64,000 nucleotides of DNA. Source: an uncultured Bacteriovoracaceae bacterium (GTDB taxonomy: Bacteria > Bdellovibrionota > UBA1018). The notes below the pieces were generated by a model, which saw only the letters and a program-made list of their open reading frames with translations, was not told the DNA's origin and did no database searches. Location of the stretch: the NCBI GenBank assembly GCA_964364175.1, contig CAYILR010000002.1, forward strand, positions 69,357-133,356. Direction: 5' to 3'. The translations under genes were made by a program, and so were the position numbers. Shown here in pieces: positions 1,809 to 61,240 of this stretch (positions are counted from its first letter, which is position 1; every line of letters begins with the position of its first letter).

Positions 1809-1827
1809 CAGCTCCTTGGGATTTTTC

Positions 1828-21391: not shown

Positions 21392-21696
21392 TTAATCCAG
21401 AATGATTTTCCTAGTGCGGACAACACCTTCTCAACATTTTCAAAAGACACTCTTCGATTTCCTGCTTCAAGTTTTGCAATCGTCAAAGTACTCAGGCCAG
21501 TTAACGCGGCAAGTTGTTTTTGGCTGAGGCTTTGGTCTGCGCGAGCAATTTTGATGGCTTTTCCTAAGTTACTAGTAGGTTCAAAACTGCTTTTGTTCAC
21601 CATCGATATTTGAGTGTTTTGCTGCTTTATAGCTTGGTCTAGTTGCTTAAGCAGATCATTAAGATTTATCTGTTTATTTTTTTCCATAGTTTCCAT
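21388..21696 (-). CDS. hipB: HipB-like XRE-family HTH protein
   Basis: 'LSQKQLAALTGLSTLTIAKLEAGNRRVSFENVEKVLSALG' is a classic HTH_XRE. First gene of the three-gene module. Confidence 0.7.
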   Translation of the reverse strand: METMEKNKQINLNDLLKQLDQAIKQQNTQISMVNKSSFEPTSNLGKAIKIARADQSLSQKQLAALTGLSTLTIAKLEAGNRRVSFENVEKVLSALGKSFWIK

Positions 21697-39019: not shown

Positions 39020-39096
39020 AGCAAGCCTGACCGTACAACAGATAAATTCGTCTAATCAAGCGTTACTCCAGCTATTTTTGAATCATCACCAATCTA

Positions 39097-40065: not shown

Positions 40066-40451
40066 GCATGAATCTCCTCGGCTTCATTTTCGGTTGGGTC
40101 AACGGTTTTTGTTCTGAGTAAATACTGTGCATGAAGTCGAGCCAGATTCAGGCCACGTGATGCGCATTGCTTCAAACTCAGAGTATTTTTGTAAGAAAGA
40201 TAGGTATCGGTAGTTTTCAATAAAGCTTCGGCCTTTGAAAAGGTAGTCTGAGTATCTTTTTCCATCTCAGCGACGAGGATGCGATTGCAATGCACTTCCT
40301 CTGCGGCTTGAGCTTGATCGAGATTGCTGATGATCGAGGACAAACTTGCCATGAGCTGCATGACGTCCTCATAGGTCAAGGCGGTGAGCCGATTCAAAAT
40401 CAGCTCTTGTTTCTCGATCACAGCGGCTCGGAGTTTCAACGGATCTGCCAT
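40062..40451 (-). CDS. hypothetical small protein (129 aa), translationally coupled to the TPR-like gene
   Basis: 4-bp overlap with the downstream gene on the same strand. Helical, no recognisable family. Confidence 0.35.
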   Translation of the reverse strand: MADPLKLRAAVIEKQELILNRLTALTYEDVMQLMASLSSIISNLDQAQAAEEVHCNRILVAEMEKDTQTTFSKAEALLKTTDTYLSYKNTLSLKQCASRGLNLARLHAQYLLRTKTVDPTENEAEEIHA

Positions 40452-40646
40452 AGTTTATGGGAAATACTGCGTTTCTTTGAAATTGACCAGGGGGTACCCA
40501 GAAAAAATCGGCCGTTCTTTAATCTGTGAGCACGGATTTGGAAGGTTTTCTACCAAATCGAAGGTCACAGACCCTTTGCAACCCCTCAAATGGAAGGATT
40601 CCTTCCAAATCACAGGCCACAGATTTTCTTACCTTCCGAAAATTTA

Positions 40647-44971: not shown

Positions 44972-45208
44972 TCAGCTCAACCCACGCTCCGACAAAACAC
45001 CGTAGATGGCTTTAACGCTGTCCATTTTCATGATCTCTTCGACTTGAAACTCGACGGTGAACTCGGTCTGAAGAGCGTTCACCAAATTCAGATGCCCGAG
45101 TGAATCCCAGCCCGCGACATGTTCGGGCAAAACGTCATCGTTGTACTCAAACTTGGCTTCGGGGAACGCGGTCTCGAATGCTTTTTTTACTTTCTCGTTC
45201 ATTGCCAT
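44972..45208 (-). CDS. acyl carrier protein (phosphopantetheine-binding, DltC-like)
   Basis: 78 aa with 'AGWDSLGHLNLVNALQTEF', an ACP serine attachment motif. Confidence 0.75.
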   Translation of the reverse strand: MAMNEKVKKAFETAFPEAKFEYNDDVLPEHVAGWDSLGHLNLVNALQTEFTVEFQVEEIMKMDSVKAIYGVLSERGLS

Positions 45209-45229: not shown

Positions 45230-45952
45230 TTAGGTCAGCGCTAGTCCGCCATCCAAAACCCAGTTGCTGCCGGTCGCGTACGATCCGGTCTCGCCCAGCA
45301 AGGTCACGACTACTTTCGCGATTTCTTCCGGCTTGCTCAATCGTTTCAACGGAATTTTGCGCGCAATCATCGCCATCAGAACCTTGTTCATCAGATCGGT
45401 CTCCACAATCCCGGGGCTGATCGACACGGCGCGAATCCCGCGATCGGCGTACTCTGCCGCAATCGATTGGGTGAAATGCATAAGCGCCGCTTTCATCGCT
45501 GCGTAGGCCGTCATTTTTGCCGACGGACGCATGCCTGCGACTGACGTCATATTGATGATGATGCCACTTTTTTGGGTGATCATTTTGGGGAGCAATTCGC
45601 GGGTCAAAAAGTACGGTGCGCGGAACAAAACTTCGATTTCTTGGTCCACATCGGCCATCGGCATCGTGTGGGTATCTGCGATCTTCATGAGGCCTGCATT
45701 GTTCACTAACGCGACCAGCTCGTCGGGTTGATTGCGAATCATTTCAACGGCTTCCTGGAGTTGTCCACGATTTGCCAAATCACATGTGAATGGTGTGAAT
45801 TGCTGTGGATAAGTCTCGGCGAGCTTTTGGAGCAGGTCGTGCCGTCGCGCCAGTCCGTACACATGAAATCCAGCCGCCACAACTTGGTGAACACAGGCCA
45901 AACCAATGCCGCTTGTCACCCCGGTAATCACCACACTTTTTCGTGCATTCAT
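45230..45952 (-). CDS. SDR-family oxidoreductase (FabG-like 3-oxoacyl-ACP reductase type); start taken at MNARKS
   Basis: 'VVITGVTSGIGLA' with 'NNAG' and 'YAAMKAAL' (the Y-x3-K catalytic motif). Confidence 0.8.
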   Translation of the reverse strand: MNARKSVVITGVTSGIGLACVHQVVAAGFHVYGLARRHDLLQKLAETYPQQFTPFTCDLANRGQLQEAVEMIRNQPDELVALVNNAGLMKIADTHTMPMADVDQEIEVLFRAPYFLTRELLPKMITQKSGIIINMTSVAGMRPSAKMTAYAAMKAALMHFTQSIAAEYADRGIRAVSISPGIVETDLMNKVLMAMIARKIPLKRLSKPEEIAKVVVTLLGETGSYATGSNWVLDGGLALT

Positions 45953-45978
45953 GGCCCCAGCATTATACGGTTTCGGGC

Positions 45979-46743
45979 ATGTCCGCAACCCGCTATCTCA
46001 CTCTCAGCATCGATGATGGCTACCCGGGTGACCTGAGAACCATCGAGATGCTCAAGAAGTATGGCTTGAAGGCGACTTTCTATGTTCCGGGGCTGAATCC
46101 CGAGCGGCCGAAACTGCCCGATGCACAGGTTCGTGAGATTGCGCAGGATCCTGATTTTGAAGTGGGTGGCCATACCTACAGCCATACTTCGCTGCATGTG
46201 AAGAGCGATGCTGTTGCGTACGAAGACATCGTCAGAGGCAAAGATTGGCTCGAGAACGTGATTGGGAAGAAAACCGTTTCGTTCTGCTATCCCCAGGGCA
46301 AATTCAACTCCCGGACTCCGGGGCTTGTAGAAAAAGCCGGATATCTGGGTGCGCGGACTTGCATGCTCAACTTGAATAGCTATCCAAAAACTCCATTTCT
46401 CTGGGGTGCGAGTACTTTGGGGTATTCGTTGCCACCGCTGATCCAAATTAGACACGCACTGATTGAGGGAAATTTTGAGGGAACTTGGAATTACTTCAAA
46501 AAATTTCGCCTCACTCAGGATTGGGCCCAGCACTTTCGGATCGCTCTGGACGATGTAGAACAAGACGGCGGGATCGCTCATCTGTTTTTTCACACCTGGG
46601 AAATCGAGGCTCTGGATCAGTGGAATTTGCTGGATGGGATTTTGAAAGAAATTTCGACCCGTAAGTCGCTTAAACGGGTGACAAACGGAGAGCTTTTTGC
46701 CAAATTTCATTCGGAATATGCAAAAGGCAGTCTCTCGACTTGA
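45979..46743 (+). CDS. polysaccharide deacetylase (NodB-homology, CE4)
   Basis: 'LTLSIDDGYP' is motif 1 (D-D). 'GGHTYSHTSL' is motif 2 (H-x4-H). 'CYPQG' follows. Confidence 0.8.
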   Translation: MSATRYLTLSIDDGYPGDLRTIEMLKKYGLKATFYVPGLNPERPKLPDAQVREIAQDPDFEVGGHTYSHTSLHVKSDAVAYEDIVRGKDWLENVIGKKTVSFCYPQGKFNSRTPGLVEKAGYLGARTCMLNLNSYPKTPFLWGASTLGYSLPPLIQIRHALIEGNFEGTWNYFKKFRLTQDWAQHFRIALDDVEQDGGIAHLFFHTWEIEALDQWNLLDGILKEISTRKSLKRVTNGELFAKFHSEYAKGSLST

Positions 46744-48007
46744 GAAATTATTTCAAATCCTGATTTCGATTGGACTCGCTGCCGGTTTTTACTATGTTGC
46801 GCGCTACCAGAGCCCGCCTGGAAAAGTTTTTCTCCTTGGAAAAAACGTCCTTTCGCTAGCCGCATTGGGAATTTGGGTGGGGCTACTGCTCCTTTGGATT
46901 CTTTTTCTCACCCGAAGTCACAAGAAAATCAGTATCCGCTGGCGTGCTGCGATCTACGCTCTGTTACTCGTCGAGTGCACACCCTACCTTTTTAGTTTTG
47001 GAATCATCTGGCCTCATCACTGGCCCCGAAGTTCACCCAACGACATGCCCGGGCACGAGTGGTGCTATCCCGGATATATTTTCCTGAGACAAGAGTACAA
47101 CGTTTGCGGAAAGCAAAATGCTGAGGGTCGGTACGATCAGGAATTTTCGCTAACACCTGCGCCCGGAGTATACCGCGCCGCTTATCTGGGCAACTCGCAC
47201 GTCGAGGGACGATCGATTCCACTGGAGAAAAAAGCGTCCAAGCTGGCGCAAGCCTCGCTCAATCAGCAATTGACGAGCCATCGATTTGAAATCATGGATT
47301 TCTACATTCCGGCGATGCGTGCGTTGGAAATTCTCACTACCACTCGGGGCGATTTGCAAAAGCACGGCGTTCAACATGTCATTTTAAAATCGATGGGCGT
47401 CGAGGACGAATTACTGAAACCTGTCTCTGCTGAAGACGCGCCTCCGACCGGACTTTATCAAAACGCTTTTCTTCAACGCCTGATTCACGTTCCGTTTTCG
47501 AATCTGCTCTCCCTTCTCGCTTGGAACGGATTACGAATGTACATCGAACTCTACAATCCTGGAGTCGCAACGATTTCGTCCGAACCCGCTCCAACACCAC
47601 AGCTCAAGGAGTGGGTGCAATCCCAGTGCGGAATTGAAAATCCCAGAATGATTCATAAACTCGCCGTTTATCTTCAGGGAATTCAACGATCCTATCAAAG
47701 TTTCAAGTCTGTTGATCTAGGTTCACAAAAGATGACGATCGTTCAAATTCCTCAACTCGAACCCTTGATTCTCTCGAATGCAGTTCTCAATAAATACGAA
47801 ACCTGCCAAACGGAAATTCATCAGCGAGCATTTGAGGAGGCCTTCGCTGGATCCAAAACTGTTAATTTTGTCGATGTCACTCCGATGTTGGCTCAATATC
47901 ACACTCATGTTTCAGAAATTTATTTTCCAGCAGACAGACATCTGAATCAGTTGGGCAATCAGATTGTTGGTGAGGCTATCGCTCAGGGGACAAAATGGTA
48001 TTTCTAA
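46697..48007 (+). CDS. DltD/AlgJ-like putative SGNH-fold acyl-transfer accessory protein with an N-terminal TM anchor (tentative)
   Basis: Single N-terminal TM region and then a soluble domain. Overlaps the MBOAT gene start. Family call is by context. Confidence 0.35.
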   Translation: MPNFIRNMQKAVSRLEKLFQILISIGLAAGFYYVARYQSPPGKVFLLGKNVLSLAALGIWVGLLLLWILFLTRSHKKISIRWRAAIYALLLVECTPYLFSFGIIWPHHWPRSSPNDMPGHEWCYPGYIFLRQEYNVCGKQNAEGRYDQEFSLTPAPGVYRAAYLGNSHVEGRSIPLEKKASKLAQASLNQQLTSHRFEIMDFYIPAMRALEILTTTRGDLQKHGVQHVILKSMGVEDELLKPVSAEDAPPTGLYQNAFLQRLIHVPFSNLLSLLAWNGLRMYIELYNPGVATISSEPAPTPQLKEWVQSQCGIENPRMIHKLAVYLQGIQRSYQSFKSVDLGSQKMTIVQIPQLEPLILSNAVLNKYETCQTEIHQRAFEEAFAGSKTVNFVDVTPMLAQYHTHVSEIYFPADRHLNQLGNQIVGEAIAQGTKWYF

Positions 48008-49158
48008 CCTCCTGGTTCTTTGCATTTCTGCTGGTTGCAGTTTTGACGTACATTTTTCTCCCGCGTGCTTGGAGAAAATACTGGCTCCTCGCTATCAGCA
48101 TGGTTTTCCACGGACACTTCGCAGGGCCGGCTGGAGTTTTGCCCATTGTGATTTTGGGTGTGACTGTCTATCTCGCTGCGCTCGCCATTGAAAAATGGAA
48201 AATTGCCACGCCGATGTGGACTGTAGGCGCTGTCTGTATATTAGCGTTGATTTACTATAAATACACGGGGTTCTTGTTAGAACTCGTAGGAATCTCCCCA
48301 GAAAAAACTCCCGTCGCACCGCTTGCGATTTCATTTTTTACTTTTGAATTCGTCCACTACCTGATCGAAGTCAAAAAAGGCGGTCCTGCTCTCAAGAACC
48401 CGATCGATTTTTGGTTATTCGCCGTATTTTTCCCCACCATTGCCAGCGGACCGATCAAACGCTATCGAGATTTTCAAGCGCAGCTCGATGCGCTCCCTAA
48501 AAAGAAAATCACAGCGCCTGAGATTCACGAAGGACTTTATCGAATTACCTCGGGGCTTTTCAAAAAACTCATCATTGCCGAGTGGGCCGTCGATCACATC
48601 CATCGTATCGAGCCCTGGTTGCACGATTCGTCCCTTTCTTCCGGATATCTTTGGGCCTTGGTCGGCTTGCAAACCACTCGCATCTATATGGATTTTGCTG
48701 GTTACAGTGACGTGGCAATTGGAATTGCGCTGCTATTGGGAATTCGCGTGCCCGAAAACTTTAATTGGCCGTACATAGCACACAACCTGAGTGACTTCTG
48801 GACACGTTGGCATATCTCACTCAGCTCGTGGATTCGAGACTATATCTATATTCCACTGGGTGGCGGCCGTGTCTCGGCCCCACGCAAGGTTTTCAATGGC
48901 TTCAGCGCCATGGTTCTTTGTGGAATTTGGCATGGACCGGCTTTGCATTTTGCTGCATGGGGAATTTATCATGGTTTGGGATTGGCGCTGCAAGAACCCA
49001 TTTCTAAGATAGTGCGTCCTCTTTTCCCCTCCGAAAAAATCTACCGGAGTTGGACGCGCGCATGGACTTTTCTCTTTGTGGCACTCGGTTGGTTAATCTT
49101 CTTTTATGAATGGAGCGATTTGAAATGGATTTTGGCAAGAATGATCGGTCTGAGCTAA
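47995..49158 (+). CDS. MBOAT-family membrane-bound O-acyltransferase (DltB/AlgI-like)
   Basis: 'FTFEFVHY', 'IASGPI' and 'WHISLSSWIRDYIYIPLGG' with the conserved His are MBOAT hallmarks. Confidence 0.85.
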   Translation: MVFLTSWFFAFLLVAVLTYIFLPRAWRKYWLLAISMVFHGHFAGPAGVLPIVILGVTVYLAALAIEKWKIATPMWTVGAVCILALIYYKYTGFLLELVGISPEKTPVAPLAISFFTFEFVHYLIEVKKGGPALKNPIDFWLFAVFFPTIASGPIKRYRDFQAQLDALPKKKITAPEIHEGLYRITSGLFKKLIIAEWAVDHIHRIEPWLHDSSLSSGYLWALVGLQTTRIYMDFAGYSDVAIGIALLLGIRVPENFNWPYIAHNLSDFWTRWHISLSSWIRDYIYIPLGGGRVSAPRKVFNGFSAMVLCGIWHGPALHFAAWGIYHGLGLALQEPISKIVRPLFPSEKIYRSWTRAWTFLFVALGWLIFFYEWSDLKWILARMIGLS

Positions 49159-49193: not shown

Positions 49194-50657
49194 ATGTTGA
49201 AAAAATACCAATCAAAACTTTGGGTTTTCCTTGGACTAGGTATTTGCACGATCCTTCTCGCGAGCTGGATCCAACTCGCTCTGCATAAACGACTCTGGAC
49301 TGATGAGGGAAATGAAATTTTGTCGAATTGCCCTCAGGGATGGCTATCGTTAGCGCAAGGCGCGGACACACAATGCAGTCCCTCTCCGCTCTATTATTTC
49401 TTTCTTAAGTTAACCGTTTTACCGATCCATGTTTTTGATCAAACTATTTTGCTGAGTTATCGGAGTGTTTCTCTGGGGGCAGCTTTTGCTTTAGGAGTGG
49501 TATTTTTTTTATATCTAGGCTTTCGCTGGGGTTGGGCAAGCGGGTTGATTGGTCTTTTGGCCTTGGCTCAACAGGGGTTGTTTCACCAATACGCGGCTGA
49601 AAATCGACCTTATATGCTTTGGCTTTTGGTGTTTTTTGTTCATCTTTGTTGTTTTTCAGATCTTTGGACAACGGCCCAGGACAGGACTCGGACATTAAAA
49701 TCCGCAGGGTTTGTTGCTCTATCCTCATTGGCGCTGACTGCTATTGCGGGACCAGGGATGCTCCAGGTTTTTTGTAGCGCGGCTAGCGTGCTGCTATTCG
49801 CACTTGTTTTTCGCCAAACTCACCGATTTCGCTCATGGTGGCGCTTTTTGGCCATTGTAACTCTGGCTTGTTTAGGAATAGGAGTCTTCTATTCTCTAAA
49901 AAGCTGCAAATATGAAAACGCAGGTGATTTCGATTTACTCTATACTCGCGATATCAATCTGGTTCTGGGTGTAATTCGCCTATTTTTGCCTAAAAGCGTT
50001 TTTCGCTTCCCTGATACTGCTTTGGTCTTCAATGGATTCTTTTTATTTGGCGTCTGGACGGCTTTGCGCCGCCTACTCAAACGACAAGAAAAGCTGGAGG
50101 CAGGTGGTATTCTGGCTTACCTCTCACTGTTTCAACTCGGATTGGCATTTCCAATAGCGATACTTATAGCTGTGAAACACTACTATTTTCTGCAGAGAGT
50201 TTTTATTTTTATTTTGATCCCATGGGCGATTTTGGCGTCCTATGGCGCCCGTGAATTACTTCACTTAGGTTGGGTTCAAAAATTCAAGGTTCTTCCCCTG
50301 CTTCTCCTGATTCTTTCGATCCCTCGCGTGGTGACATTGGAAGCAAATGCCAGGACTCCTTTTTATGACATCGAATGCGATATGATTCAGGACGTCCAGT
50401 TTACTTCGATTTATCTAGATCGGTTGCCATATCCAGATGTTCAAGCCAACGTTTTAGTGGATTTAGATCGCGCCTACCGAAAATGCGGATATGATCCAGC
50501 AAAGGCCACAAAAGCTTCTCTTTTGATCCATTTTGAGCCTACCTTGCCACAGCTTTATCGTTTAGAAAAACTAAGCGCATCCTCACAGCCATTGCCCAAG
50601 TGGATTTCTCTAGAGCAGTGCGGAAAACAGATTCGCGATATACCTCAGAGGTACTGA
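49194..50657 (+). CDS. GT-C (ArnT/PMT-like) polytopic membrane glycosyltransferase candidate
   Basis: TM1 then 'RLWTDEGNE' (DE motif). More than 10 TM. First of three tandem paralogous genes. Confidence 0.5.
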   Translation: MLKKYQSKLWVFLGLGICTILLASWIQLALHKRLWTDEGNEILSNCPQGWLSLAQGADTQCSPSPLYYFFLKLTVLPIHVFDQTILLSYRSVSLGAAFALGVVFFLYLGFRWGWASGLIGLLALAQQGLFHQYAAENRPYMLWLLVFFVHLCCFSDLWTTAQDRTRTLKSAGFVALSSLALTAIAGPGMLQVFCSAASVLLFALVFRQTHRFRSWWRFLAIVTLACLGIGVFYSLKSCKYENAGDFDLLYTRDINLVLGVIRLFLPKSVFRFPDTALVFNGFFLFGVWTALRRLLKRQEKLEAGGILAYLSLFQLGLAFPIAILIAVKHYYFLQRVFIFILIPWAILASYGARELLHLGWVQKFKVLPLLLLILSIPRVVTLEANARTPFYDIECDMIQDVQFTSIYLDRLPYPDVQANVLVDLDRAYRKCGYDPAKATKASLLIHFEPTLPQLYRLEKLSASSQPLPKWISLEQCGKQIRDIPQRY

Positions 50658-52069
50658 TGAACATTTTTGAAAAATATATTGAGTCTGATGCAGATAGAAT
50701 TCACCGTTGGGTTCTATTATTCGTTGCAATTACTTTATTTGCCACGCTCAACGATGCGTCGCTCTGGCTGGATGAAGTGGCAACCGTGAGCGCCTCTGGG
50801 CTGGTTGATTTCAAATCGGGTTTCATCGAAGCATTCCACGATGGTCAGATGCCTTTTGTTTATTTTTCGATTTTTGTTTCTCGCCTGCTTTTTGGTAGCA
50901 ATGAGTTTGCCTCAAGATTGCCTATTGTTCTTTTTGCTCTAGGGTTTTTATGGGTCTTGCCGCGGCTTTACAGGCAAGCGGGCTATAAGCCAATTCTAGC
51001 AACCGTTGCAGCGGTCCTTTTGGCGTTTCATGGGAAATTTATTTTTTATGCACAAGATGCACGCTTTCACATGCCAGGGGTCTGCGCCTTGTTTATCTGG
51101 GCAGCCTATCGCAAATCAGGATCCTGGAAATCTTTTAGCGCCTGCTTGATAGCTCTTTTTACACATACTTTTTCTGTGATCACGGTGGGCGCCACTCTGG
51201 GTATCGATATTTTCTCTGAATGGTATTTCGAAAAAAAATCATTTAAAGAGCTGTTTTTAAAATATGCCCCGAACTTCACTGCTTTGCTCCTGTTTTCTCC
51301 CGCCTACTTATTTCTCATCACTTTGATGCGGAAATCCCGCCTCCAAGGAGTCGGAATTACTGACTTTACTCAGCAGGTTTTTTCCAGCCTTGAAATCATT
51401 AAAAACGCATGGCTTTTCTTTTTTGATTCTCGAAGTACTATTTGGATTGTTTTGAGCCTGATTTCAATCTTTGCAATTATTTTTCGCCGCAATTCACTCA
51501 CCAATTTTCTGCTTGCTGCTGTCTGCGCAGTGCTGTTTCAAGCGCTGATTTTTGGCTTCACTCAACAATGCTTTTTTCCAAGGTATCTATTGCTGCTATT
51601 GCCGCTTGTGATTGTGGGTTCGGTGACTTTGCTACAATTGACTGCTCTATGGGGAAAGCTGTTAGTACCTGTGATCTTTTTGTCTCTTTATTTTCTACCC
51701 CACCTTTCCTTTCAAATCCGACCATGGCCAGGGGTTTTGGCTCAGCTTTTTCCAATGACGGCTCAAGAACTCAGTACGACACACAAAGAAAACTGGCGTG
51801 ATATGACTAAAACCCTCGCTTGGCTAGCTAAGCCAGGGGAGAGCATCGGCCCATCATCCGATTGCGGTGGAGACTGCTCCAAATATCCCATTCTATTTTA
51901 CGGAGGCAATGAACCGGTGATTCAATCCCTGACTTGGATTGATCGTATAGAAACTTGTGCCAGCTGGATCGTTTCCACCCATTCCAATCTCTCTGAAGTC
52001 CGTGGCTGCAAGGAGATTAAACCCGTTGGGAATTTCTCGACTCTTTTTCTTTACCAAGGAAAGCCATGA
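50657..52069 (+). CDS. GT-C (ArnT/PMT-like) polytopic membrane glycosyltransferase candidate; start at the ATG overlapping the upstream stop (TGATG)
   Basis: 'ASLWLDEVATV' DE motif after TM1 and more than 10 TM. Confidence 0.5.
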   Translation: MNIFEKYIESDADRIHRWVLLFVAITLFATLNDASLWLDEVATVSASGLVDFKSGFIEAFHDGQMPFVYFSIFVSRLLFGSNEFASRLPIVLFALGFLWVLPRLYRQAGYKPILATVAAVLLAFHGKFIFYAQDARFHMPGVCALFIWAAYRKSGSWKSFSACLIALFTHTFSVITVGATLGIDIFSEWYFEKKSFKELFLKYAPNFTALLLFSPAYLFLITLMRKSRLQGVGITDFTQQVFSSLEIIKNAWLFFFDSRSTIWIVLSLISIFAIIFRRNSLTNFLLAAVCAVLFQALIFGFTQQCFFPRYLLLLLPLVIVGSVTLLQLTALWGKLLVPVIFLSLYFLPHLSFQIRPWPGVLAQLFPMTAQELSTTHKENWRDMTKTLAWLAKPGESIGPSSDCGGDCSKYPILFYGGNEPVIQSLTWIDRIETCASWIVSTHSNLSEVRGCKEIKPVGNFSTLFLYQGKP

Positions 52070-53880
52070 TTTTTTATCTCATTCTCATTTGTTTTTTAGT
52101 GGTCTACGGCTTTTCAACCACTCTTTTTTCAGCATTCACAATGGGCATCACTCGCGATGAACCCTTCTACAAAGAAATGGGCACTCTGTATCTCAAACTT
52201 TTTGACTTCGGAATCAGCATGGATCACCCGCCCTTTGCAACCTGGTTCGGGGCGCTGATTCCCCATTTTCTCAATTTGCAGCAGATGTTTTTTTTCCGGA
52301 TTGCTCATGTAGCTCTCTATACGCTCGCCGGTATTTTTTTTATTTATTACTTTTATAAAAATAAGAAAACATTCGCTGCCCTGATTTTTTCCATGCTTTT
52401 TTTCCTGGATCCAAACATGAAGGCAACAGCTTCCCTCAATGTCATTGATGCGGATTTGGCGATATGGATGGCCTTGGCTTTTTTTTATATTTGGCGGTTC
52501 TTGCGGGAGAAGCCTTCGAATGAAAAACCTGCCCTCCCTTTTTTAATCGGCCTTTTGTCTGGGCTGGCAGCCAATTCAAAAATAACAGGACTGCTGGTCA
52601 TGTTCTGCGGGGCAATCGTAGTAGGGTTGAAAATTTCAAATCCTGCATTGAAGGGGCGCAAACTTGTCGCTCGAGTTTCACCCGGACTATTTTTTGCTGG
52701 AGGAGTCATACTCTCTTTTTTGATAGCCTATCTATTCCATCCTTCTCAGATTCTTCTGTACAAAAAGAACATTGGATTCCAGCTAGTTCACAATTCATTT
52801 GGCCAGCCAGGATACATGCTGGGAAAACATTCTGAAATGGGGTTTTGGTACTTTTACCTAGTCTCTTTTTTTCTGAAAGAGCCCCTTGCGTGGTTGATAC
52901 TTCTTTTCATTCCCATTTTATTCAGCAGAAAGCATCTCGACCGAGCTACAGCACTTGTTTTTTTCGCCCCTGCCGCCATCATGCTTCTGGTTTTTTCGCT
53001 AGGCCACGTACAAATTGGAATCCGATATTTTTTGCCAGGCATGCTGCTCTTAGAATTGGGAGCAGCCATCGTTTTTGATCAATTCGTTCAGAATCTGAAT
53101 CAACGGTACAGACAAATGACACTTGCTGTGTCACTCGCGTTGGGGATCATTCTTTTGGGAGTTGATTTTTCCACAGTTGCATATGGATCGTATCTATCTT
53201 TTTTTAATACCCTAGCTCCAACTCCATCGAGAAATTTTACAGAATCCAATATTGATTGGGGGCAAGGCATTCCAAAACACCTCACGCATAGATGCCAACC
53301 CACCCAGCTCGCTTTGGATGGCCCATTTTCAAACATTTTCGAATCTCAAAAATCAATCCGTTTCATTGCCCCTCCGCTGCTGATGAATTCGAATCCATTG
53401 ACAAAAAATCACTACGTTCCTCTCAAAGAGTTTCAATCTCAGAACGTGATCGCGGGCTATGAATGCTTTGAATTCAATAATAACCAATTATTTGAGTATC
53501 TCTGGGTATTAGATCACTGGAAGCTTCATGACAGTGCCCCCAAAAGCCCGGAATCCTTGCTTCATGCCATCCAACAATCGACTCAGCACTTTTGTGAGCA
53601 ACCTTCGTCGATTAAAATATCGATGCAAACCGTTCAGGTTGGACAAAAGATCACTGTCGTTCCCGGACAGCCTCAACTCCTTTTGCTCAAACGCGGACAA
53701 AAAGCTTTCGTGGTTGATTCGAATGGAACTCGAAAACCGATGATCGCGTTTGATGAAAATCGCTCGCCACTCAACGAGGTCAGAGTGTGGATTTCCGCAG
53801 TGGACCATCCCCAATCCTTCCTCTTTTCGTCGACAAAATTAGATTCGACCGGCTATTTAGTCACCCGATCTTGTCTCTAA
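52066..53880 (+). CDS. GT-C (ArnT/PMT-like) polytopic membrane glycosyltransferase candidate with a C-terminal soluble domain
   Basis: 'MGITRDEPFY' DE motif. 'ANSKITGLL' loop. About 190-aa C-terminal periplasmic-type domain. Confidence 0.55.
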   Translation: MIFYLILICFLVVYGFSTTLFSAFTMGITRDEPFYKEMGTLYLKLFDFGISMDHPPFATWFGALIPHFLNLQQMFFFRIAHVALYTLAGIFFIYYFYKNKKTFAALIFSMLFFLDPNMKATASLNVIDADLAIWMALAFFYIWRFLREKPSNEKPALPFLIGLLSGLAANSKITGLLVMFCGAIVVGLKISNPALKGRKLVARVSPGLFFAGGVILSFLIAYLFHPSQILLYKKNIGFQLVHNSFGQPGYMLGKHSEMGFWYFYLVSFFLKEPLAWLILLFIPILFSRKHLDRATALVFFAPAAIMLLVFSLGHVQIGIRYFLPGMLLLELGAAIVFDQFVQNLNQRYRQMTLAVSLALGIILLGVDFSTVAYGSYLSFFNTLAPTPSRNFTESNIDWGQGIPKHLTHRCQPTQLALDGPFSNIFESQKSIRFIAPPLLMNSNPLTKNHYVPLKEFQSQNVIAGYECFEFNNNQLFEYLWVLDHWKLHDSAPKSPESLLHAIQQSTQHFCEQPSSIKISMQTVQVGQKITVVPGQPQLLLLKRGQKAFVVDSNGTRKPMIAFDENRSPLNEVRVWISAVDHPQSFLFSSTKLDSTGYLVTRSCL

Positions 53881-55062
53881 TCGAGACTTTCTGATCAGAA
53901 GCAGAAGAAAAGCCCAAACTCCGATCAAGGTGAAAAGAGGAATGTATTTTGTAGCTACCTGAAGAGTCAACTGAATCGGTTTTGGAAACGGATTCTCACC
54001 ATAGGGAAAGCAAACCAACAGCAAAATCAAGACGAACCAGGAGCTGAATTTTGAAAAACTCTTCGAATTTTTCACCGCACCCAGTACGAAAATGGTGGGT
54101 ACCAAAACTTGGATGAACTGGTAAGATTTGATCCGAGGAAGCAAAAGTGAGTATGAAGTCAGCACCAAATAGACCGTTTCAAGCAGACTAGGTTTAAAAC
54201 GAATGATCCAAAAAAAGCTCACTCCAAAAATTGATACTGAGCTCAAAGCATATATTGTGAAAGACAAAGACGAAGGCAAGACTTTGTACCCGCTTTCCGA
54301 AAGCGTGCGGCTCAGGTCACCCATCAATGCATAAATCGACGGACTCAATGTTCCAAACTCGGTCACTCGTTGAGAGGCCTGATTCACAAATTCCGCCCAA
54401 GGCTGTGAATAAAAAATCATTTGATAGGCGATCAATCCAAGAAACACGAGGCTAGAGGCAATCAGGCAGCTGATCTTCTGGCGATTCGGCCGATACAAAA
54501 GCAGGATGAGCAAAACAATAGGCGTCAGCTTGAACAGCGAAACCAAAACTACGCACGCACCAAACAAAAAATTTCGATTCGAAATATAGCCGTAAAATCC
54601 AATCCAAAGAACTGCTTGTTCAAATAAAGTCACATTTCCGCTGGCGACATCCCAAAATAACGCGCCATTGTAACCTAGCAATAATACACACCCTGCCCAA
54701 ATTTTTTTTAAATCAGGGATGAATTTTTTCTCCCAAAAATAGAACAATCCAATCATCACAAAAAGCTGAGAGATCAGCCATAATACAGAAGCCTGTGAGT
54801 ATTTGATCAGCGACAGTGGCTTCACCAGCGCAAAGGTAATCGGCGGATAAACGTAGCTCCCCGTGACAACCGTCGCCTCTGGAGGAAGTATTTGCCGAGG
54901 ATCAAACTGATAGGGAACGAGCCCCTTGAGTAGAAGCATCGATGCGCTGTAATAAGCATTGAAATCCCAGTGGTAGGCATGGATTCGTGTACCAACAACA
55001 GAGAAAAACAGAAGAGCTAAGCCCATGTATACAATCGATGATAAATATTTCGAGCTTTGCAA
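53857..55062 (-). CDS. polytopic membrane protein, GT-C-like (DUF2029/GT87-like) candidate
   Basis: About 400 aa with about 10 TM and an architecture like polyprenyl-P-mannose-dependent mannosyltransferases. Confidence 0.4.
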   Translation of the reverse strand: MQSSKYLSSIVYMGLALLFFSVVGTRIHAYHWDFNAYYSASMLLLKGLVPYQFDPRQILPPEATVVTGSYVYPPITFALVKPLSLIKYSQASVLWLISQLFVMIGLFYFWEKKFIPDLKKIWAGCVLLLGYNGALFWDVASGNVTLFEQAVLWIGFYGYISNRNFLFGACVVLVSLFKLTPIVLLILLLYRPNRQKISCLIASSLVFLGLIAYQMIFYSQPWAEFVNQASQRVTEFGTLSPSIYALMGDLSRTLSESGYKVLPSSLSFTIYALSSVSIFGVSFFWIIRFKPSLLETVYLVLTSYSLLLPRIKSYQFIQVLVPTIFVLGAVKNSKSFSKFSSWFVLILLLVCFPYGENPFPKPIQLTLQVATKYIPLFTLIGVWAFLLLLIRKSRLETRSGD

Positions 55063-55078
55063 ACGACCTCCGGGATTA

Positions 55079-56716
55079 TTAACTAGACGAACTGCGCTTT
55101 CCGTTCAGGTAGTCATTCGGCAAATACACTTGGCAACTCTTGGGATCCCCATACTGACGTTGAGTAGAAAATCCGAGCCGCTTCAAAATACCATCCATTC
55201 TCTCACTCGCTAGCCGACAACTCACCACCGCGCCCAAACGTCGGCCTTCTAAATTCAACAACCTCAATGACTCCACCATAGTGGTACTGCCAACATCACG
55301 ATCAAAATTATCCATGATCGCTCTGCGTCCCATGTAATAGGGCAGCTCGGACGACCAATCACACCCATACATCAACAGAACTTCATCCGGATGGGTATGC
55401 TCCCGGACAAACTGAATCATCTGGTAATCCAAACCTACCCAATTGGACTCTTCCATCTGCATAGGCAAATAGGTTTTTTGAAACGACGCGTGACCACTCC
55501 AGACCACCAAAAAGCTGGTCAAAACCACAACCGAAGTCCGAAGCCATATTCTGCCGTCCTTCAATGCAGCGTTAATACAAAACACAAAAGCGGCGATAAA
55601 AAAGACGACATTTGCATACTGATAATAGTTGTGAACGATGTGAAGATTCGTAAAAATCAAATAAACACCGAAGAAACAAATCAAAGAACCTGCCGCTAAA
55701 ACTCGATCTTTCCGATCTCGGATCAAAAAAAGTGAAGTGCATCCCAAAGCGACGAAAACATACCAGTAAGTACCCATCGCCTCCCAAAACATACTGGGAA
55801 CACGATGAATCCAAATATCCAGCGATCTCCTCTGAGCAGACGTTCCAAAATTCCACAATCGCAATGCACGCGAATTGATGAATCCGTTGGCCAACGGATT
55901 TTTGATTTTCACCTGATCAGCAAAACTGGTCCACTGAACAGTCGCGAGCAGTGGTATAAAAGCCAAAATCATTCCTGCAGGAACCCACTCTCTCAACCAA
56001 GTCCCAATATTTTTAAGCCTATCCCTCTTCTGCCAAATCTGCACCAGGGTTGCCAAAAAAACTGCCAATAAAAAACCGATCCATGTCGTTGCTTTGATTG
56101 CACCGGCAAGGGCTCCAAAAACAGCCGTGAGCCCAGCGTTCGCCCAACCTCTCTTGCGCAAATATCTGAGCGCAAACGCCAGATAAGCTGCCGAGAAAAA
56201 AAGTGCAGTCGATTCGATCATCACCGTTCGGGACCAGAACAGATAACTGGGTGAAGACAATAGGAGAGACAGAAAAATCCAACGTGCCAGAATCGAAAGC
56301 CCAAGCTCAGAAACACAAACCCAAAAAAAAGGTAGACTGGCGTAGAAGAAAGCCTGCGAAACGATCCGACCCACAGGAGCGATATCCCAACCCGAAATCC
56401 ACGACGTAAATGCCACCACCCATTGGTAAAATGGAAATTCAAACGGAATCGACCAGGGAGGACCTAAAACCGGCGTTTCGTATCTGAGTAGAGGCCCGCC
56501 TTTCAAAATATATTCTGCAGAAATCAAAGTCTGGGCCTGACGAAAACCGTGAGCATCCCCAATGTAGGTCTTCCAGAGCGCAATCGGAAACTGTGTCAAA
56601 CTGAAATAAAGCGTGTAGAGAAAAAGAGAAATCCCCAGGATCAGCGGTAATTCACTGAGGACAACCGAAACCCATGTGGGAACTGATCTTTGACGAGATT
56701 GCGTCAAAGACGTCAT
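55079..56716 (-). CDS. GT-C (GT39/ArnT-like) polytopic membrane glycosyltransferase candidate
   Basis: 545 aa, multi-TM, periplasmic loops and a C-terminal soluble region. Confidence 0.45.
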   Translation of the reverse strand: MTSLTQSRQRSVPTWVSVVLSELPLILGISLFLYTLYFSLTQFPIALWKTYIGDAHGFRQAQTLISAEYILKGGPLLRYETPVLGPPWSIPFEFPFYQWVVAFTSWISGWDIAPVGRIVSQAFFYASLPFFWVCVSELGLSILARWIFLSLLLSSPSYLFWSRTVMIESTALFFSAAYLAFALRYLRKRGWANAGLTAVFGALAGAIKATTWIGFLLAVFLATLVQIWQKRDRLKNIGTWLREWVPAGMILAFIPLLATVQWTSFADQVKIKNPLANGFINSRALRLWNFGTSAQRRSLDIWIHRVPSMFWEAMGTYWYVFVALGCTSLFLIRDRKDRVLAAGSLICFFGVYLIFTNLHIVHNYYQYANVVFFIAAFVFCINAALKDGRIWLRTSVVVLTSFLVVWSGHASFQKTYLPMQMEESNWVGLDYQMIQFVREHTHPDEVLLMYGCDWSSELPYYMGRRAIMDNFDRDVGSTTMVESLRLLNLEGRRLGAVVSCRLASERMDGILKRLGFSTQRQYGDPKSCQVYLPNDYLNGKRSSSS

Positions 56717-57789
56717 GATTCACCACCAAAAATAGGTCTCAAATCCACCTCGTTTTGACGAATCCACTGGTGAATGTTTTCGACGATGTCTTTGATACTC
56801 TTTTTGGGCTTCCAACCCAAAGCCTGTGACACCTTGGTGTTGTCAGAAATATACAACGGGATATCCACTGATGTCGTTTGTGTATCCGAAGCGATCTCGA
56901 TCTTGCGCCCGGTGACCTGCTGACAAATCGCCGTCAACTCACACAACGAAGTGGACACTTCTGTTCCTCCACCCACATTGTAAACCTCTGCTGCCCCGAG
57001 CGACTGAATCTGCCGAATCTGCGTCTGAATCAAGTCAAACAAATCCAGCGGGTGCAACAAATCGCGTACTTGCTTTCCTTGTCCACCGAAACCCGTGTAC
57101 TTCAATGGTTTACCGAAATAATGATTCGCGACCCAAAGGGTAAAAACTCCTTGATCGACTTTGCCAAACTGCCCAGGGCCCGCGATGACTCCGCAGCGAT
57201 TGATTACTGCTTTCATCCCATAAGTGTCGGCATATTCTTGAATCACGAGCTCGGATGCTAATTTGGTGGCTCCATAAATCGATCGGGGTAAATGCGTGGG
57301 GAAATTTTCAGCCACGCCCTTTTCGGAGGCACCTGAGAATTTTTGATCTGCTTTCAATTCCAAGCGTGTACTTCCCTCACGCAATGCCAATTCCCTCAGA
57401 GGCTGAATGGAATACACACGAGAAGTTGAAAGAAAAACCATCATGCCTGCTCTTTTACGGGCCAACTCCAAGCAATTGAGCGTACCCGTGAGATTCGTCT
57501 GCAAAACATATGCAGGAGATCCGCTCAAACCCGCCAAAACACTGGGTTCAGCAGAAGCCTCGACAAAAACATCGAAGTTCCCCTTCAAATCGTTCAAATC
57601 ATCGGCACTGCGAATATCTCCATGAACAAATTCAATCTGATTTTTTTTAAACAAAGGGATGTTGAGTTCAGAACCCCGACGGCGCAAATTATCCAAAGCA
57701 ACTATTTCGTCCTGAGGACCGGCTTCTCGAAAAGCCAACGCAAGCCGCGATCCGACAAAACCAGCTCCACCTGTGATGAGAATCCTCAT
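56713..57789 (-). CDS. NAD-dependent epimerase/dehydratase (SDR), CDP-paratose-2-epimerase-like; start at MRILITGG (4-bp overlap with the upstream GT2)
   Basis: 'ILITGGAGFVGS', 'LSTSRVYS' and 'GKQVRDLLHPLD'. Confidence 0.75.
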   Translation of the reverse strand: MRILITGGAGFVGSRLALAFREAGPQDEIVALDNLRRRGSELNIPLFKKNQIEFVHGDIRSADDLNDLKGNFDVFVEASAEPSVLAGLSGSPAYVLQTNLTGTLNCLELARKRAGMMVFLSTSRVYSIQPLRELALREGSTRLELKADQKFSGASEKGVAENFPTHLPRSIYGATKLASELVIQEYADTYGMKAVINRCGVIAGPGQFGKVDQGVFTLWVANHYFGKPLKYTGFGGQGKQVRDLLHPLDLFDLIQTQIRQIQSLGAAEVYNVGGGTEVSTSLCELTAICQQVTGRKIEIASDTQTTSVDIPLYISDNTKVSQALGWKPKKSIKDIVENIHQWIRQNEVDLRPIFGGES

Positions 57790-58538
57790 AGAGGCGCCTC
57801 TCGCTTGCTGCGATGATAATCTCCCCGCGAAAGCCATTTCTCAATCCAACAATACAAAATAATAAATAGGTAACGAGAACCCATTTCTTTGATTTTTAGC
57901 TTCGAAATCCCAGTTTTTCGGTTGATCCAATCGTTGGGAATCACCGTATAGCTGTATCCACGCACGATGGATTTCAACGGCAACTCGACCGTGAGATTGA
58001 AATGATGGCTTAAAAAAGGCTGAATCCCTTGGATCACTTCTTTGCGATAGAGCTTAAAGGCATTGGTCACGTCGTTGTAACGAAGCCCAAAAAGAATCTG
58101 GATAATCTTGTTGGCGATCCGATTGAGAAAAAGTTTGAATCCAGGATAATCGATAATTTTTGACTCACGCATAAAACGTGATCCAAAAACACAATCTACT
58201 CCTTTTTCATTCATTGCTCGAAAAAATCGCACCAGATCTTCCGGCCGATCCGAGGCATCTGCCATAAAAACAGCAACCGCGTCCCCTTGAAAATTTTCTA
58301 GCCCCTTGCGAACCGCAAAACCAAAACCGTGAGGCGGAACATTATTGATGTAGCGAACTCCAGCTAACTCCGCTTGCAGCCTCTTTAAAATCGTTTCTGT
58401 CTGATCAGAAGAATTGTCATTGATCACCAGAATTTCGTGATCGATTTTTTCTGCCTGAAGAGTACGCGACAATGCACCTACAGTCCCCTCAATGCACCCT
58501 TCTTCATTATGTGCAGGAATCACGACCGAAAGCTTCAA
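57786..58538 (-). CDS. glycosyltransferase family 2, polyprenyl-phosphate sugar synthase type (DPM1/ArnC/GtrB-like)
   Basis: '[11 protein letters not shown]', 'INDNSSDQT', '[10 protein letters not shown]' and 'VFGSRF' with a hydrophobic C-terminus. Confidence 0.8.
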
Positions 58539-59599
58539 TTCGGCCTCTCGCGTGCAGCCTCAACCATTTCTTTCAAAATTCGCTTGAGGTCGTACTGATA
58601 TTTCCACTCCGGATAATCGGATTGGAATTTGCGAACGTCGCTCACCCACCAGATGTGATCGCCTGAGCGCGCTTGATCCGAGAGGCTGTACTGTAACTTG
58701 CGCCCGCTGATTTCTTCGGTGATTTGAATCGCTTCTAGCATCGAGCAATTGCTGTGCCGTGAACCGCCCATATTATACACCGCACCGGCGCGAGGATTTT
58801 TGTAAAAGCTCCAAAATGCACTCACAAGATCGTGTGAGTGAATGTTGTCGCGAACTTGCTTACCCTTATATCCAAAAATCGTATACGGTTTCCCATGCAC
58901 CGTGCACTTCACCAAATAAGCAAGAAATCCGTGCAATTCTGCACCAGAATGCGAAGGACCCGTGAGACAGCCGCCTCGAAACGTGCCTGTTTTCATCCCA
59001 AAGTAACGACCGTATTCTTGAGCAAGAACGTCTGCGGCCACCTTGCTCGCTCCAAAAAGACTGTGCTTGGATTGATCGATGGTCAAAGTCTCGTCGATTC
59101 CGTGCTTGGCATATGTATGCGACGGATCTAGTTCCCAACGCATTTCTTTTTCTACGAGTGGGAGAAAATTTGGAGCATCCCCATAGACTTTATTCGTGGA
59201 AGTAAAAATAAACACAGCATCAGGACAATACTTCCGGGTGTTCTCCAAAAGCACCAGCGTGCCATTCGCATTGACTGTGAAATCCGTGTACGGCTCGCGT
59301 GCGGCCCAATCATGGCTGGGTTGTGCTGCCGTGTGAACCACCAGGGAAATCTTCTTGCCCATTTCCGAAAAAACCTTCGCGATGGCCTGATCGTCTCGAA
59401 TATCAATTGAAAGGTGGGTGAAATTTTTGAAGCTCTTTTTGAGGCGCTCGGTATTCCACTCAGTCGATCCATCCTGACCGAAAAAATACTTTCGCATGTT
59501 GTTGTCGATCCCGACTACCTCGAGCCCTTGAGCGTGCAGGAATTTTACAGTTTCACTTCCGATGAGTCCTGATGAACCCGTGACTATGGCGACAGACAT
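58535..59599 (-). CDS. NAD-dependent epimerase/dehydratase (SDR), CDP-paratose/tyvelose-2-epimerase-like
   Basis: '[10 protein letters not shown]'. '[12 protein letters not shown]' matches RfbE '[12 protein letters not shown]'. '[13 protein letters not shown]' matches 'GKQVRDVLHAEDM'. Confidence 0.8.
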
Positions 59600-59701: not shown

Positions 59702-61240
59702 ATGAAACTCAGCTCTCCAGCTCCTGTCAGTTTTTCCAGCTTGCGATTCTGGATGCTGATTTTGGGCGGAATTTGTCTCATTTTCCAGGTCATCAAAGCA
59801 GCCACTACAGGCCTCTGGTGGGACGAAGCTCTCATTCTCAAACCCATCTCTTCGATGCTTGCGGGCGAAGGCTGGAAAGCAATGGGCGTATTGTTTCACG
59901 AGGGCATCAGCACTGGACCGGCACTGCTCATTCCCGGACTGCTGCTCAGTTGGCTGACTCACGGGCCTGTTCCGCCTCTGCTCCACCTTCTTGCTCTTTC
60001 CCATCTTTTACTGCTTTTTTTTGGCTGGAAAAGATGGGGGGTTACCTATTTCGAAGCTGCAGTCATTCTCGGAATTTACCTCATCATTGTGACCCTTTCG
60101 CCCAAACTTTATATCACTCATTTTTTGGGAGAGTTCCCGGGTAGTGTTTGGTTTCTTTTGGGGGCTTGGCTTGCCTTCAGCCCGATCAAAAATCGCTTAC
60201 AGTTGCAATGGGCAGGCATATTTTTCATGCTCTCCATCTTGTCCAAATTCATTTTCATCATGCCGATTGCCACGTCGCTTTTTGCGTGGCTGCTGTTCCA
60301 GCGAATTCATCCTTTCACCCGGAAATTTTGGACTTTTTTCTTTAAACTTGCGTTAGGCGCTCTAGTACCCTGTAGCTTTTGGGTTTTATTTCAGTGGCAA
60401 CAGTATGGAAATCTTGTCGGCATGCAGGAGGGGTACCTGCGGTGGTTGAATCTGATTCTTCATGGAGACAATGGCGCAGGCCTACAACAATCCAGCCAAG
60501 CGGGGGGTTTGATCAAACCCATGAGAATGATTTTTCAGGATGTGCAGGGCCTGATGATTTCTGGCACTGCTCCTATACTGGTTTTAGGCTGGTTAGCTTT
60601 TCAAGTTTTCTCCATTCGTCAAGCCTGGAAAGATAGGAAGCCATCTGCTTCTTTGTGTATAGCCGTTGGCAGCACCTCTGTTTTGGCTTGGTGGGTCTTC
60701 CTTTCTCGGTTTGGTGGCGGTGGTGCGCTTTTTCGGCATGTGAGTCCAGTCATCTGGATTGGTTTGGGTGCAATGTGCAGGGACTGGTTTTTTTTCCGTG
60801 GCATGAGTCGACTGAACCAAAATCATGGGTACCCCGTTCTAGGCGCGTTACTCAGCCTCGGCCTCACAGGAGTTTTGGGCTTTCGATCCTATCAGTATGT
60901 TTTTGAACACAAGGGGCTCGGGCTTTATTCTTCGTGGTATCACCAAAACCAAATCCAAAAATGGATTATTACAAACTCAACCACTGAAAATCCCGTTCCC
61001 GTTTTAAACTGCACGGCAGATGGCCATGTTTGGTATAGCAATGTTTATCTTCCACTTGCGTCACTCACCCCTCCCGATCGCTACTTTGTCTTAGAGCCTT
61101 GTCGGCTTCCCTCAGGCTCGCTCCAGAGCAGCCGGTTCTTAGTCGGAATCGAGGCTCATCACCTGAATGATTTTGATCGAGGACTGCTGACCTTGGTCGA
61201 CGGTTCCTGGGATGGGCAAGGCCTCTATCAAATCAAATAA
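59702..61240 (+). CDS. GT-C (ArnT/PMT-like) polytopic membrane glycosyltransferase candidate
   Basis: 'TGLWWDEALILKP' DE motif after TM1, more than 10 TM and a C-terminal soluble domain. Confidence 0.5.
   Translation: MKLSSPAPVSFSSLRFWMLILGGICLIFQVIKAATTGLWWDEALILKPISSMLAGEGWKAMGVLFHEGISTGPALLIPGLLLSWLTHGPVPPLLHLLALSHLLLLFFGWKRWGVTYFEAAVILGIYLIIVTLSPKLYITHFLGEFPGSVWFLLGAWLAFSPIKNRLQLQWAGIFFMLSILSKFIFIMPIATSLFAWLLFQRIHPFTRKFWTFFFKLALGALVPCSFWVLFQWQQYGNLVGMQEGYLRWLNLILHGDNGAGLQQSSQAGGLIKPMRMIFQDVQGLMISGTAPILVLGWLAFQVFSIRQAWKDRKPSASLCIAVGSTSVLAWWVFLSRFGGGGALFRHVSPVIWIGLGAMCRDWFFFRGMSRLNQNHGYPVLGALLSLGLTGVLGFRSYQYVFEHKGLGLYSSWYHQNQIQKWIITNSTTENPVPVLNCTADGHVWYSNVYLPLASLTPPDRYFVLEPCRLPSGSLQSSRFLVGIEAHHLNDFDRGLLTLVDGSWDGQGLYQIK

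Follow-up and report, generated by a model that had tools for sequence, protein, structure and literature searches.

GT-C-type glycosyltransferase genes of several families, at unusual density, in a glycan-biosynthesis island of an uncultured Bacteriovoracaceae bacterium

Three-component systems of periplasmic glycosylation, reviewed in PMC11127046 and PMC8035078, are exemplified by GtrA/GtrB/GtrC of Shigella and Salmonella, the GT136 system of Citrobacter youngae and CsbB/GtcA/YfhO of Gram-positive bacteria. Other related systems that involve glycosyltransferases of the GT-C fold are the ArnT (GT83) pathway with ArnB/C/A/D/E/F, the protein O-mannosyltransferases (PMTs; family GT39, including Pmt1/2/4 of yeast) and the mycobacterial set comprising PimE (GT87), EmbA/B/C, AftA-D and MptA-C. 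GT-C enzymes are hard to recognise from their sequence, and few of the bacterial families are characterised. The locus described here was found in 64,000 nucleotides from an uncultured Bacteriovoracaceae bacterium (assembly GCA_964364175.1, contig CAYILR010000002.1, positions 69,357 to 133,356 of the forward strand). This whole stretch is called the window, and positions are counted from its first nucleotide. It carries five consecutive genes, P1 to P5, whose products are all GT-C-type, four of them firmly established and P2 on remote homology. The mechanism is a known one, represented here by new or poorly covered families (P1/P2, and a cassette containing P5 that has fused counterparts) at an unusual density.

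Organisation and GT-C identity of P1 to P5

P1 (49194-50657, 487 amino acids), P2 (50657-52069, 470 amino acids, or 489 from an alternative start at 50600) and P3 (52066-53880, 604 amino acids) are encoded by successive open reading frames (ORFs) of the plus strand, and P4 (53857-55062, 401 amino acids) and P5 (55079-56716, 545 amino acids) by ORFs of the minus strand. The five genes lie in two translationally coupled operons. The junction is TGATG between P1 and P2 and ATGA between P2 and P3. On the minus strand, a short-chain dehydrogenase/reductase (SDR) gene (58535), a GT2 glycosyltransferase gene (57786), a second SDR gene (56713) and P5 form a chain joined by TTGA/ATGA overlaps, with ATGA at the SDR/P5 junction, and P4 follows 16 nucleotides after P5, starting with TTG downstream of a GGAGG site. 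P3 and P4 are convergent and overlap by 24 nucleotides. A preliminary description of the sequence had reported five consecutive genes, some overlapping, for proteins of 400-600 amino acids with 10 or more transmembrane (TM) segments, and this was confirmed: the ORFs encode 401-604 amino acids, the overlaps exist, and each product has 10-11 TM segments in a crude hydropathy scan (6-9 when the threshold is stricter). In the AlphaFold models, P1 and P5 are helical bundles almost throughout. As proteins of this kind are infrequent in genomes, a run of five genes encoding about ten TM helices each is probably not due to chance.

The window has matches in contigs of a groundwater metagenome from Hainich (0.1 µm filter fraction). 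It also lies on a 186-kb NCBI contig. Two other assemblies, L001 and L002, are 99.9% identical to the window, a run of N being the sole gap, and therefore represent the same population. The same P1-P5 genes are present in the independent gene calls of these two assemblies. The shortened P1 called in L001 (a 395-amino-acid fragment) is an assembly artefact and no variant, the gene call having been split by the run of N at L001:8247-8259 (about position 50325 of the window).

Two of the proteins are assigned by family models. P3 matches Pfam PF02366 (PMT) over residues 38-194 (E 1.3e-7, 31.8 bits against a cut-off of 22.7) and ends with a soluble domain of about 230 amino acids; a scan of the genome collection found no relative of it among species-representative genomes. 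P4 matches PF09594 (GT87, PimE/DUF2029-like) with 58.3 bits against a cut-off of 25 (E 1.3e-15). P1, P2, P4 and P5 give no PMT match at E ≤ 0.1. At the same threshold, ten polytopic proteins of the window match no NCBIfam family, ArnT-type included, besides an irrelevant MarC match. Profile searches of the PDB sequences with the P1, P2 and P5 alignments, and single-sequence searches with P3 and P4, returned no match.

P1, which has no Pfam or NCBIfam match, and P5 are recognised by their fold. A word-indexed homologue search with P1 returned P1 only, and an exhaustive HMMER search among 1.84 billion representatives found 90 homologues. D37, E38 and R90 are invariant in the 60 family members aligned (60/60), one of which gives a weak PMT_2 match in a Pfam scan. 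The AlphaFold model of P1 is confident (predicted local distance difference test, pLDDT, 90.9; predicted template modelling score, pTM, 0.93) and its top 30 Foldseek matches are all GT-C proteins, the best being ArnT (5f15; E 9e-5, template modelling score 0.52). P5 belongs to a family of at least 849 homologues sharing 35-42% identity and the motifs FRQxQT...WSIPFEFP...IES; a minority of them match PF13231 (PMT_2) or PF02366 (PMT), or are named GT39, ArnT family or RgtA/B/C/D-like by their sources. Its model, obtained from a 36-sequence alignment, has a pLDDT of 89.4 and a pTM of 0.91. Both modelled proteins are similar in three dimensions to solved GT-C enzymes; their likeness to ArnT lies at the level of the fold only, with about 12% identity in the structural alignments. 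The identification of P1 and P5 as transporters or Wzy proteins was rejected, as their top structural matches include no membrane protein other than GT-C.

P2 has two homologues in 5.8 billion clusters (word-indexed search), and one more locus was found in the JGI metagenomes. The sequence SLWLDEVATVS is identical in the three aligned members (3/3; the acidic pair is D39/E40 when numbered from the start at 50657), and four C-terminal Cys are conserved. When compared by hhalign with the P1 family, the three-sequence profile of P2 gave a probability of 96% (E 4.2e-9, 108 columns). This match aligns the W-x-DE motifs, R87 of P2 with R90 of P1 (the invariant Arg with which TM2 begins) and R136 with R138 (an E/D-x-R motif); the controls against the P5 family gave 2% and 10%. 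The preliminary assignment of the five proteins to GT-C enzymes, ArnT/PMT-like in fold, is upheld by the Pfam matches (PMT, GT87), the fold matches of P1 and P5 and the profile link of P2. P1/P2 and P5 are outside the characterised GT-C families, and the P5 family is widespread and uncharacterised.

A DE or DD pair had been ascribed to the first loop of each protein. It was found in three of them, directly after TM1: RLWTDEGNE in P1, SLWLDEVATV in P2 and GITRDEPFY in P3 (residues 31-32, from a single sequence only). P4 and P5 have a single Asp each at this place, namely D32 in P4 (HWDFNAYY, again from a single sequence) and D54 in P5 (IGDAHGFRQ), a position occupied by D or E in 32 of 36 homologues. 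In the same 36-sequence alignment of the P5 family, E93, R117, E168 and K208 are invariant. P1 and P2 have conserved Cys residues both in loop 1 and in their C-terminal domains, which would fit an oxidising, periplasmic location.

The preliminary description had also read these genes as an expansion of paralogues, which did not withstand comparison. An all-against-all search of the GT-C candidates with BLAST and phmmer gave no similar pair, and recent duplication of the five genes is rejected on this ground. The P1 and P5 family profiles matched no other protein of the window, each family model finding its own member only, and hhalign and hmmsearch of the P1, P2 and P5 profiles against the other polytopic proteins of the window gave nothing beyond the P1/P2 link. 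Because no detectable similarity exists among the copies except this remote one, the locus gathers different GT-C families and not one duplicated family; those present would be PMT-like, GT87, the P5 family and the P1/P2 family.

Recurrent neighbourhoods of P5 and of P1 and P2

P5 is preceded by three genes for soluble enzymes. The first gene of the minus-strand operon (58535-59599) encodes an SDR similar to CDP-tyvelose 2-epimerase (best solved relatives 1orr and 9rl0, E 2e-34). It is followed by a short GT2 (57786-58538, minus strand; Pfam Glycos_transf_2) of 250 amino acids without TM helix, which resembles the polyprenyl-phosphate sugar synthases DPM1, ArnC and PgfS; its best NCBIfam matches, all below the cut-off, are PgfS, Dol-P-hexose transferase, AglJ, ArnC and PpgS. 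The gene directly upstream of P5 (56713-57789, minus strand; Pfam Epimerase) encodes an SDR epimerase/dehydratase that is also CDP-tyvelose 2-epimerase-like (9rl0 and 1orr, E 1e-34). These three enzymes are 70-78% identical (74-78% for the SDR at 58535) to the products of same-position genes in metagenome-assembled genomes (MAGs) of Oligoflexia, Bacteriovoracia, Oligoflexales and Bdellovibrionales, which points to a Bdellovibrionota-like origin of the DNA.

A search of 185,579 species genomes with the P5 alignment found more than 528 relatives across many phyla. Among the loci of the best 80 of them, 17 carry the whole SDR, GT2, SDR and P5-like cassette (L004-L069); they belong to Oligoflexia/Bacteriovoracia, Microcystis, Planctomycetota, Lentisphaerae, and delta- and gammaproteobacterial MAGs. 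No description of this cassette was found in the literature searched, and it appears uncharacterised. Three proteins (P0075, P0118 and P0123) are natural fusions of about 890 amino acids in which an N-terminal GT2 domain precedes a P5-type GT-C. The N-terminal domain of P0075 is 69% identical to the GT2 at 57786-58538 and its C-terminal part is 37% identical to P5. Such Rosetta-stone fusions tie the GT2 and GT-C activities together. Since the fused GT2 domain needs cytoplasmic nucleotide sugars, the N-terminus of the GT-C part would be inside and loop 1 of the P5 family outside.

Two unrelated JGI contigs (L085:964-7146 and L087:5105-7827) encode P2 homologues, each with a P1-family gene at most 3.3 kb away and short GT2 genes in its vicinity. 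The P1-like gene of L087 is directly downstream of the P2-like gene, which looks frameshifted. The P1-P2 neighbourhood is therefore kept in three independent loci (49194-52069 of the window, L085 and L087), and the two proteins may act as a pair. The best P1 homologue, in L086, has another protein with 9 TM segments as neighbour, as well as an arn-like set made of DegT, a GT2 of 316 amino acids, GNAT and SDR; a "DDEGFY" protein next to it has no BLAST match with the polytopic protein encoded at 6445 in the window. A more far-reaching proposal would make P1/P2 a previously unclassified GT-C family (no Pfam model; about 90 and 4 members) forming an obligate heteromer as Pmt1-Pmt2 or EmbA-EmbB do, and acting with the other GT-Cs and four polyprenyl-phosphate sugar synthases in a mycobacterium-like periplasmic assembly or branching of the surface glycan of a Bdellovibrionota-like Gram-negative bacterium. 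As a whole, this proposal seems unlikely.

The surrounding island and its polytopic genes

The entire 64 kb is a glycan-biosynthesis island. Its sugar-nucleotide genes encode two DegT aminotransferases, several SDR epimerases/dehydratases, a UDP-sugar dehydrogenase and GFO/IDH/MocA oxidoreductases; its modification genes encode hexapeptide and GNAT acyltransferases, a sugar C-methyltransferase and FdtA-like cupins; and its Leloir glycosyltransferases belong to GT4 and GT2. A polysaccharide deacetylase, an AlgX-like SGNH protein and an MBOAT acyltransferase (Pfam Polysacc_deac_1, ALGX, the latter weak, and MBOAT) are encoded at 45943-49158, upstream of P1-P3 and on the same strand, and suggest O-acylation of the same extracytoplasmic polymer. 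Three polytopic proteins are related to Wzy_C (O-antigen ligase/polymerase-like), all encoded by the plus strand: 25502-26821 (PF04932, E 7e-10), which the preliminary description had left out of its candidates, 27597-29030 and 62625-63941 (PF04932, E 3e-15). The last two are 46% identical and are the only clear paralogues in the window.

Three ArnC/DPM1-like polyprenyl-phosphate sugar synthases had been announced in the window. The three genes exist: besides the one in the P5 operon, two short GT2s, both AglJ/ArnC-like, are encoded on the minus strand at 8477-9280 and 10398-11144. The best NCBIfam similarities of the three proteins (AglJ, ArnC, PgfS and PpgS) fit such a function, all of them falling below the curated cut-offs. 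A fourth GT2 domain of this kind, AglJ/Dol-P-hexose-transferase-like, occupies the C-terminal half (residues 217-439) of a protein of 458 amino acids encoded at 17930-19306 (plus strand).

The same description counted eleven GT-C enzymes in the window, that is P1 to P5 and six more. The six additional ORFs do encode polytopic proteins (9-12 segments each) in which an early TM helix is followed by an acidic patch; they have no Pfam or NCBIfam match and stay unverified, and the count of eleven is not established. Two of them, whose motif and its position match the P1/P2 pattern, carry GLWWDEALIL (59702-61240, plus strand, 9 segments) and DIEFKNDEIW (61241-62548, minus strand, 11 segments) after TM1; no relatives of the former were found in plasmids (tblastn) or in the JGI metagenomes. 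Three others, on the plus strand, have the loops SDPDYAYL (1768-3396, likely start 1828), HEGDDGGYFAY (6445-8058) and GLMDDASML (28933-30390, likely start 29017). The weakest of the six (14913-16520, plus strand) has its acidic patch outside the first loop. Some of these proteins may be Wzy-type polymerases, or even a flippase.

The density of such genes had been presented as exceptional. The window contains 14 ORFs of at least 350 amino acids with at least 8 hydropathy segments, that is 0.22 per kb. This was compared with 48 loci of about 21 kb, which are already enriched since each is centred on a P5 homologue; their median is 0.10 per kb and their maximum 0.23 per kb. Two of them (L044 and L065) have five polytopic ORFs each in 21 kb, several with W-x-DE after TM1, and in L018 and L019, the closest two relatives whose 10-kb flanks are complete, the P5 homologue is the only such ORF. 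The density of the window is at the top of the sampled range, over three times the length, and multi-GT-C clusters are not unique.

Other features of the island concern sugar modification or its origin. Two FdtA-like cupin ORFs (8020-8469, minus strand; 11203-11604, plus strand) and a sugar C-methyltransferase gene (11601-12851, plus strand) adjoin DegT and GT2 genes, which hints that the donors are 3-amino-dideoxy or branched-chain sugars. A LuxC acyl-CoA reductase, a LuxE acyl-protein synthetase and an AMP-binding ligase (36639-42158, minus strand), together with a small ORF resembling acyl carrier protein (44972-45208, minus strand), could provide an acyl or aldehyde modification route for the glycan. 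A HipA-like kinase (20079-21696, minus strand) with a small HipB-like helix-turn-helix ORF upstream lies in a patch of low GC (0.38) in the middle of the locus, suggesting a mosaic or mobile origin. An ATPase_2/AAA protein with an HTH_20 domain (35032-36507, minus strand), unrelated to glycan synthesis, is also encoded inside the locus. The first ORF of the window (28-495) is the C-terminal end of a TPR-containing protein of 781 amino acids, whose gene continues to the left of the window and is preceded by a B12-binding radical SAM gene (L083:1-4051).

Proposed pathways and comparison with known systems

As the preliminary description had proposed, periplasmic, lipid-carrier-dependent glycosylation is the best reading of these data, the presence of the GT2 gene 57786 in the P5 operon and the GT2-GT-C fusions pointing to it. 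The further suggestion in that description, a highly branched glycan or the glycosylation of proteins, is speculative. A surface glycan is probably decorated in the periplasm by several polyprenyl-phosphate-sugar pathways, through five different GT-C enzymes. The following scheme can be proposed. In the cytoplasm, the SDRs, DegT aminotransferases, acetyl- and methyltransferases and other enzymes would make unusual nucleotide sugars. The short DPM1/ArnC-like GT2s would load single sugars onto polyprenyl (undecaprenyl) phosphate at the inner face of the membrane, and the lipid-linked sugars would then be flipped to the outer face. Each GT-C would finally transfer its sugar to a periplasmic acceptor by means of the acidic residue or residues located just after TM1. 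The lipid-phosphate donor is suggested by the operon linkage and by the fusion with a DPM1/ArnC-like GT2, and the acceptor would most likely be a surface polysaccharide or lipopolysaccharide (LPS) built by the GT4, GT2 and Wzy_C genes of the locus. Several decoration pathways of the three-component type would thus stand side by side, the clearest unit being the SDR-GT2-SDR-P5 operon with P4 behind it; a second one would be made of P1-P2-P3, co-transcribed with the deacetylase and the MBOAT/AlgX-like O-acylation set.

Several observations weigh against this scheme. No flippase of the GtrA/SMR, ArnE/F, MATE or Wzx type was recognised in the window, whether among the ORFs scanned with Pfam or among the small intergenic ones, so the flipping step has no candidate there; the intergenic gaps contain no small multi-TM ORF. 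No initiating phosphoglycosyltransferase was identified in the window either, and the P1-P3 operon has no GT2 of its own. The GT2 matches to polyprenyl-phosphate synthase families are all below the curated cut-offs, and the short GT2s lack the TM anchors of ArnC and GtrB. Simple positive-inside counts give an ambiguous orientation of the acidic loops, and P2 would be a GT-C on remote homology only.

The most serious alternative is that some of these proteins, above all the six candidates encoded outside 49-57 kb, are not GT-C enzymes and are instead Wzy polymerases, ligases, flippases or other proteins in which the acidic patch is coincidental. This explanation is plausible, although the odds are somewhat against it. 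None of the six has a family match or any similarity to the verified GT-C profiles, a D/E pair near the end of a TM helix is a weak motif, and Wzy polymerases are notoriously divergent; however, the motif and its position in 59702 (LWWDEA) and 61241 (KNDE) match the P1/P2 pattern, and the five focal genes are excluded from this explanation by Pfam, the fold comparison and the P1/P2 profile link. It has also to be considered that the enzymes act on lipid A or on the core of LPS, as ArnT, RgtA-D and LgmB do, and alter surface charge instead of decorating a repeat-unit polymer. The locus does hold arn-like ingredients (DegT aminotransferases, ArnC-like GT2s and, upstream of P1, a deacetylase of ArnD-like fold), some P5 homologues bear the names ArnT family or RgtA/B/C/D-like in their sources, and the best P1 homologue lies beside its DegT, GT2, GNAT and SDR set. 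Yet no protein reaches an NCBIfam ArnT-type model, neither an ArnA-type formyltransferase/decarboxylase nor ArnE/F was found in the window, and five to eleven enzymes exceed any known lipid A modification set, which makes this alternative unlikely.

That P1-P5, all or some of them, modify secreted proteins or those of the envelope by a kind of O-mannosylation, as actinobacterial Pmt and the eukaryotic PMT and TMTC enzymes do, and not a polysaccharide, is quite unlikely: P3 does match the PMT model, but neither a MIR nor a TPR domain for acceptor binding was detected in the five proteins, and the neighbouring genes (Wzy_C, GT4, MBOAT/AlgX and deacetylase) are those of a polysaccharide. The GT-Cs could lastly form an assembly line that polymerises a glycan wholly on the outer face from polyprenyl-phosphate monosaccharides, as the mycobacterial Emb, Aft, Mpt and PimE enzymes do for arabinan and lipomannan. 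The unusual density (5 verified enzymes and up to 11 candidates, with 4 polyprenyl-phosphate synthase-like GT2 domains), the presence of a PimE-type GT87 and the pairing of P1-like and P2-like proteins in three independent loci, which recalls the EmbA-EmbB or Pmt1-Pmt2 heteromers, would agree with such a line. However, the three Wzy_C proteins, together with the GT4 and GT2 enzymes of the cytoplasm, stand for the classical route by which repeat units are built and then polymerised, no carbohydrate-binding modules were detected, and the related Bdellovibrionota-like loci with a P5 cassette have only one polytopic gene nearby; this last alternative appears very unlikely.

For the decoration scheme, the mechanism is already established, and the value of the locus lies in cataloguing and enzyme discovery and not in a new concept. 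The P1 and P2 families have no Pfam or NCBIfam model, yet they show invariant residues of catalytic type, P1 with a confident GT-C model. P1/P2 and the P5 cassette are therefore targets in the search for new lipid-linked sugar donors and new CAZy families. Such families help to explain the diversity of surface glycans in uncultured, possibly predatory, bacteria.

Compared with the systems mentioned at the outset, the locus shares features with each. The ArnT pathway has its counterparts in the ArnB-like aminotransferases, the ArnC-like GT2s and the deacetylase of ArnD fold, but no protein of the locus belongs to an ArnT model, and ArnA and ArnE/F were not found in it. The DE motif carried by loop 1 of PMTs is present after TM1 in P1-P3, and P3 passes the PMT model; in contrast to PMTs, the proteins have no MIR domain, their C-terminal domains consist of small alpha/beta modules in which Cys or Arg is conserved, and the context is polysaccharide synthesis and not protein secretion. 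The three-component systems are approached in that a GT2 gene similar to polyprenyl-phosphate sugar synthases adjoins a GT-C gene, with auxiliary epimerases in the cassette and within a polysaccharide locus. Unlike them, the locus has no recognised flippase gene, its GT2s have no TM anchors, and many GT-C genes of unrelated families stand side by side. The mycobacterial GT-C genes are spread over several loci. The use of many different GT-Cs acting on polyprenyl-phosphate monosaccharides, presumed here, is common to both, although the phylum differs, the locus is of Gram-negative type with Wzy_C, and neither sequence similarity to Emb or Aft nor carbohydrate-binding domains are seen. P4 belongs to GT87, as PimE does, and the P1-P2 neighbourhood has its parallel in the GT-C pair EmbA-EmbB of mycobacteria.

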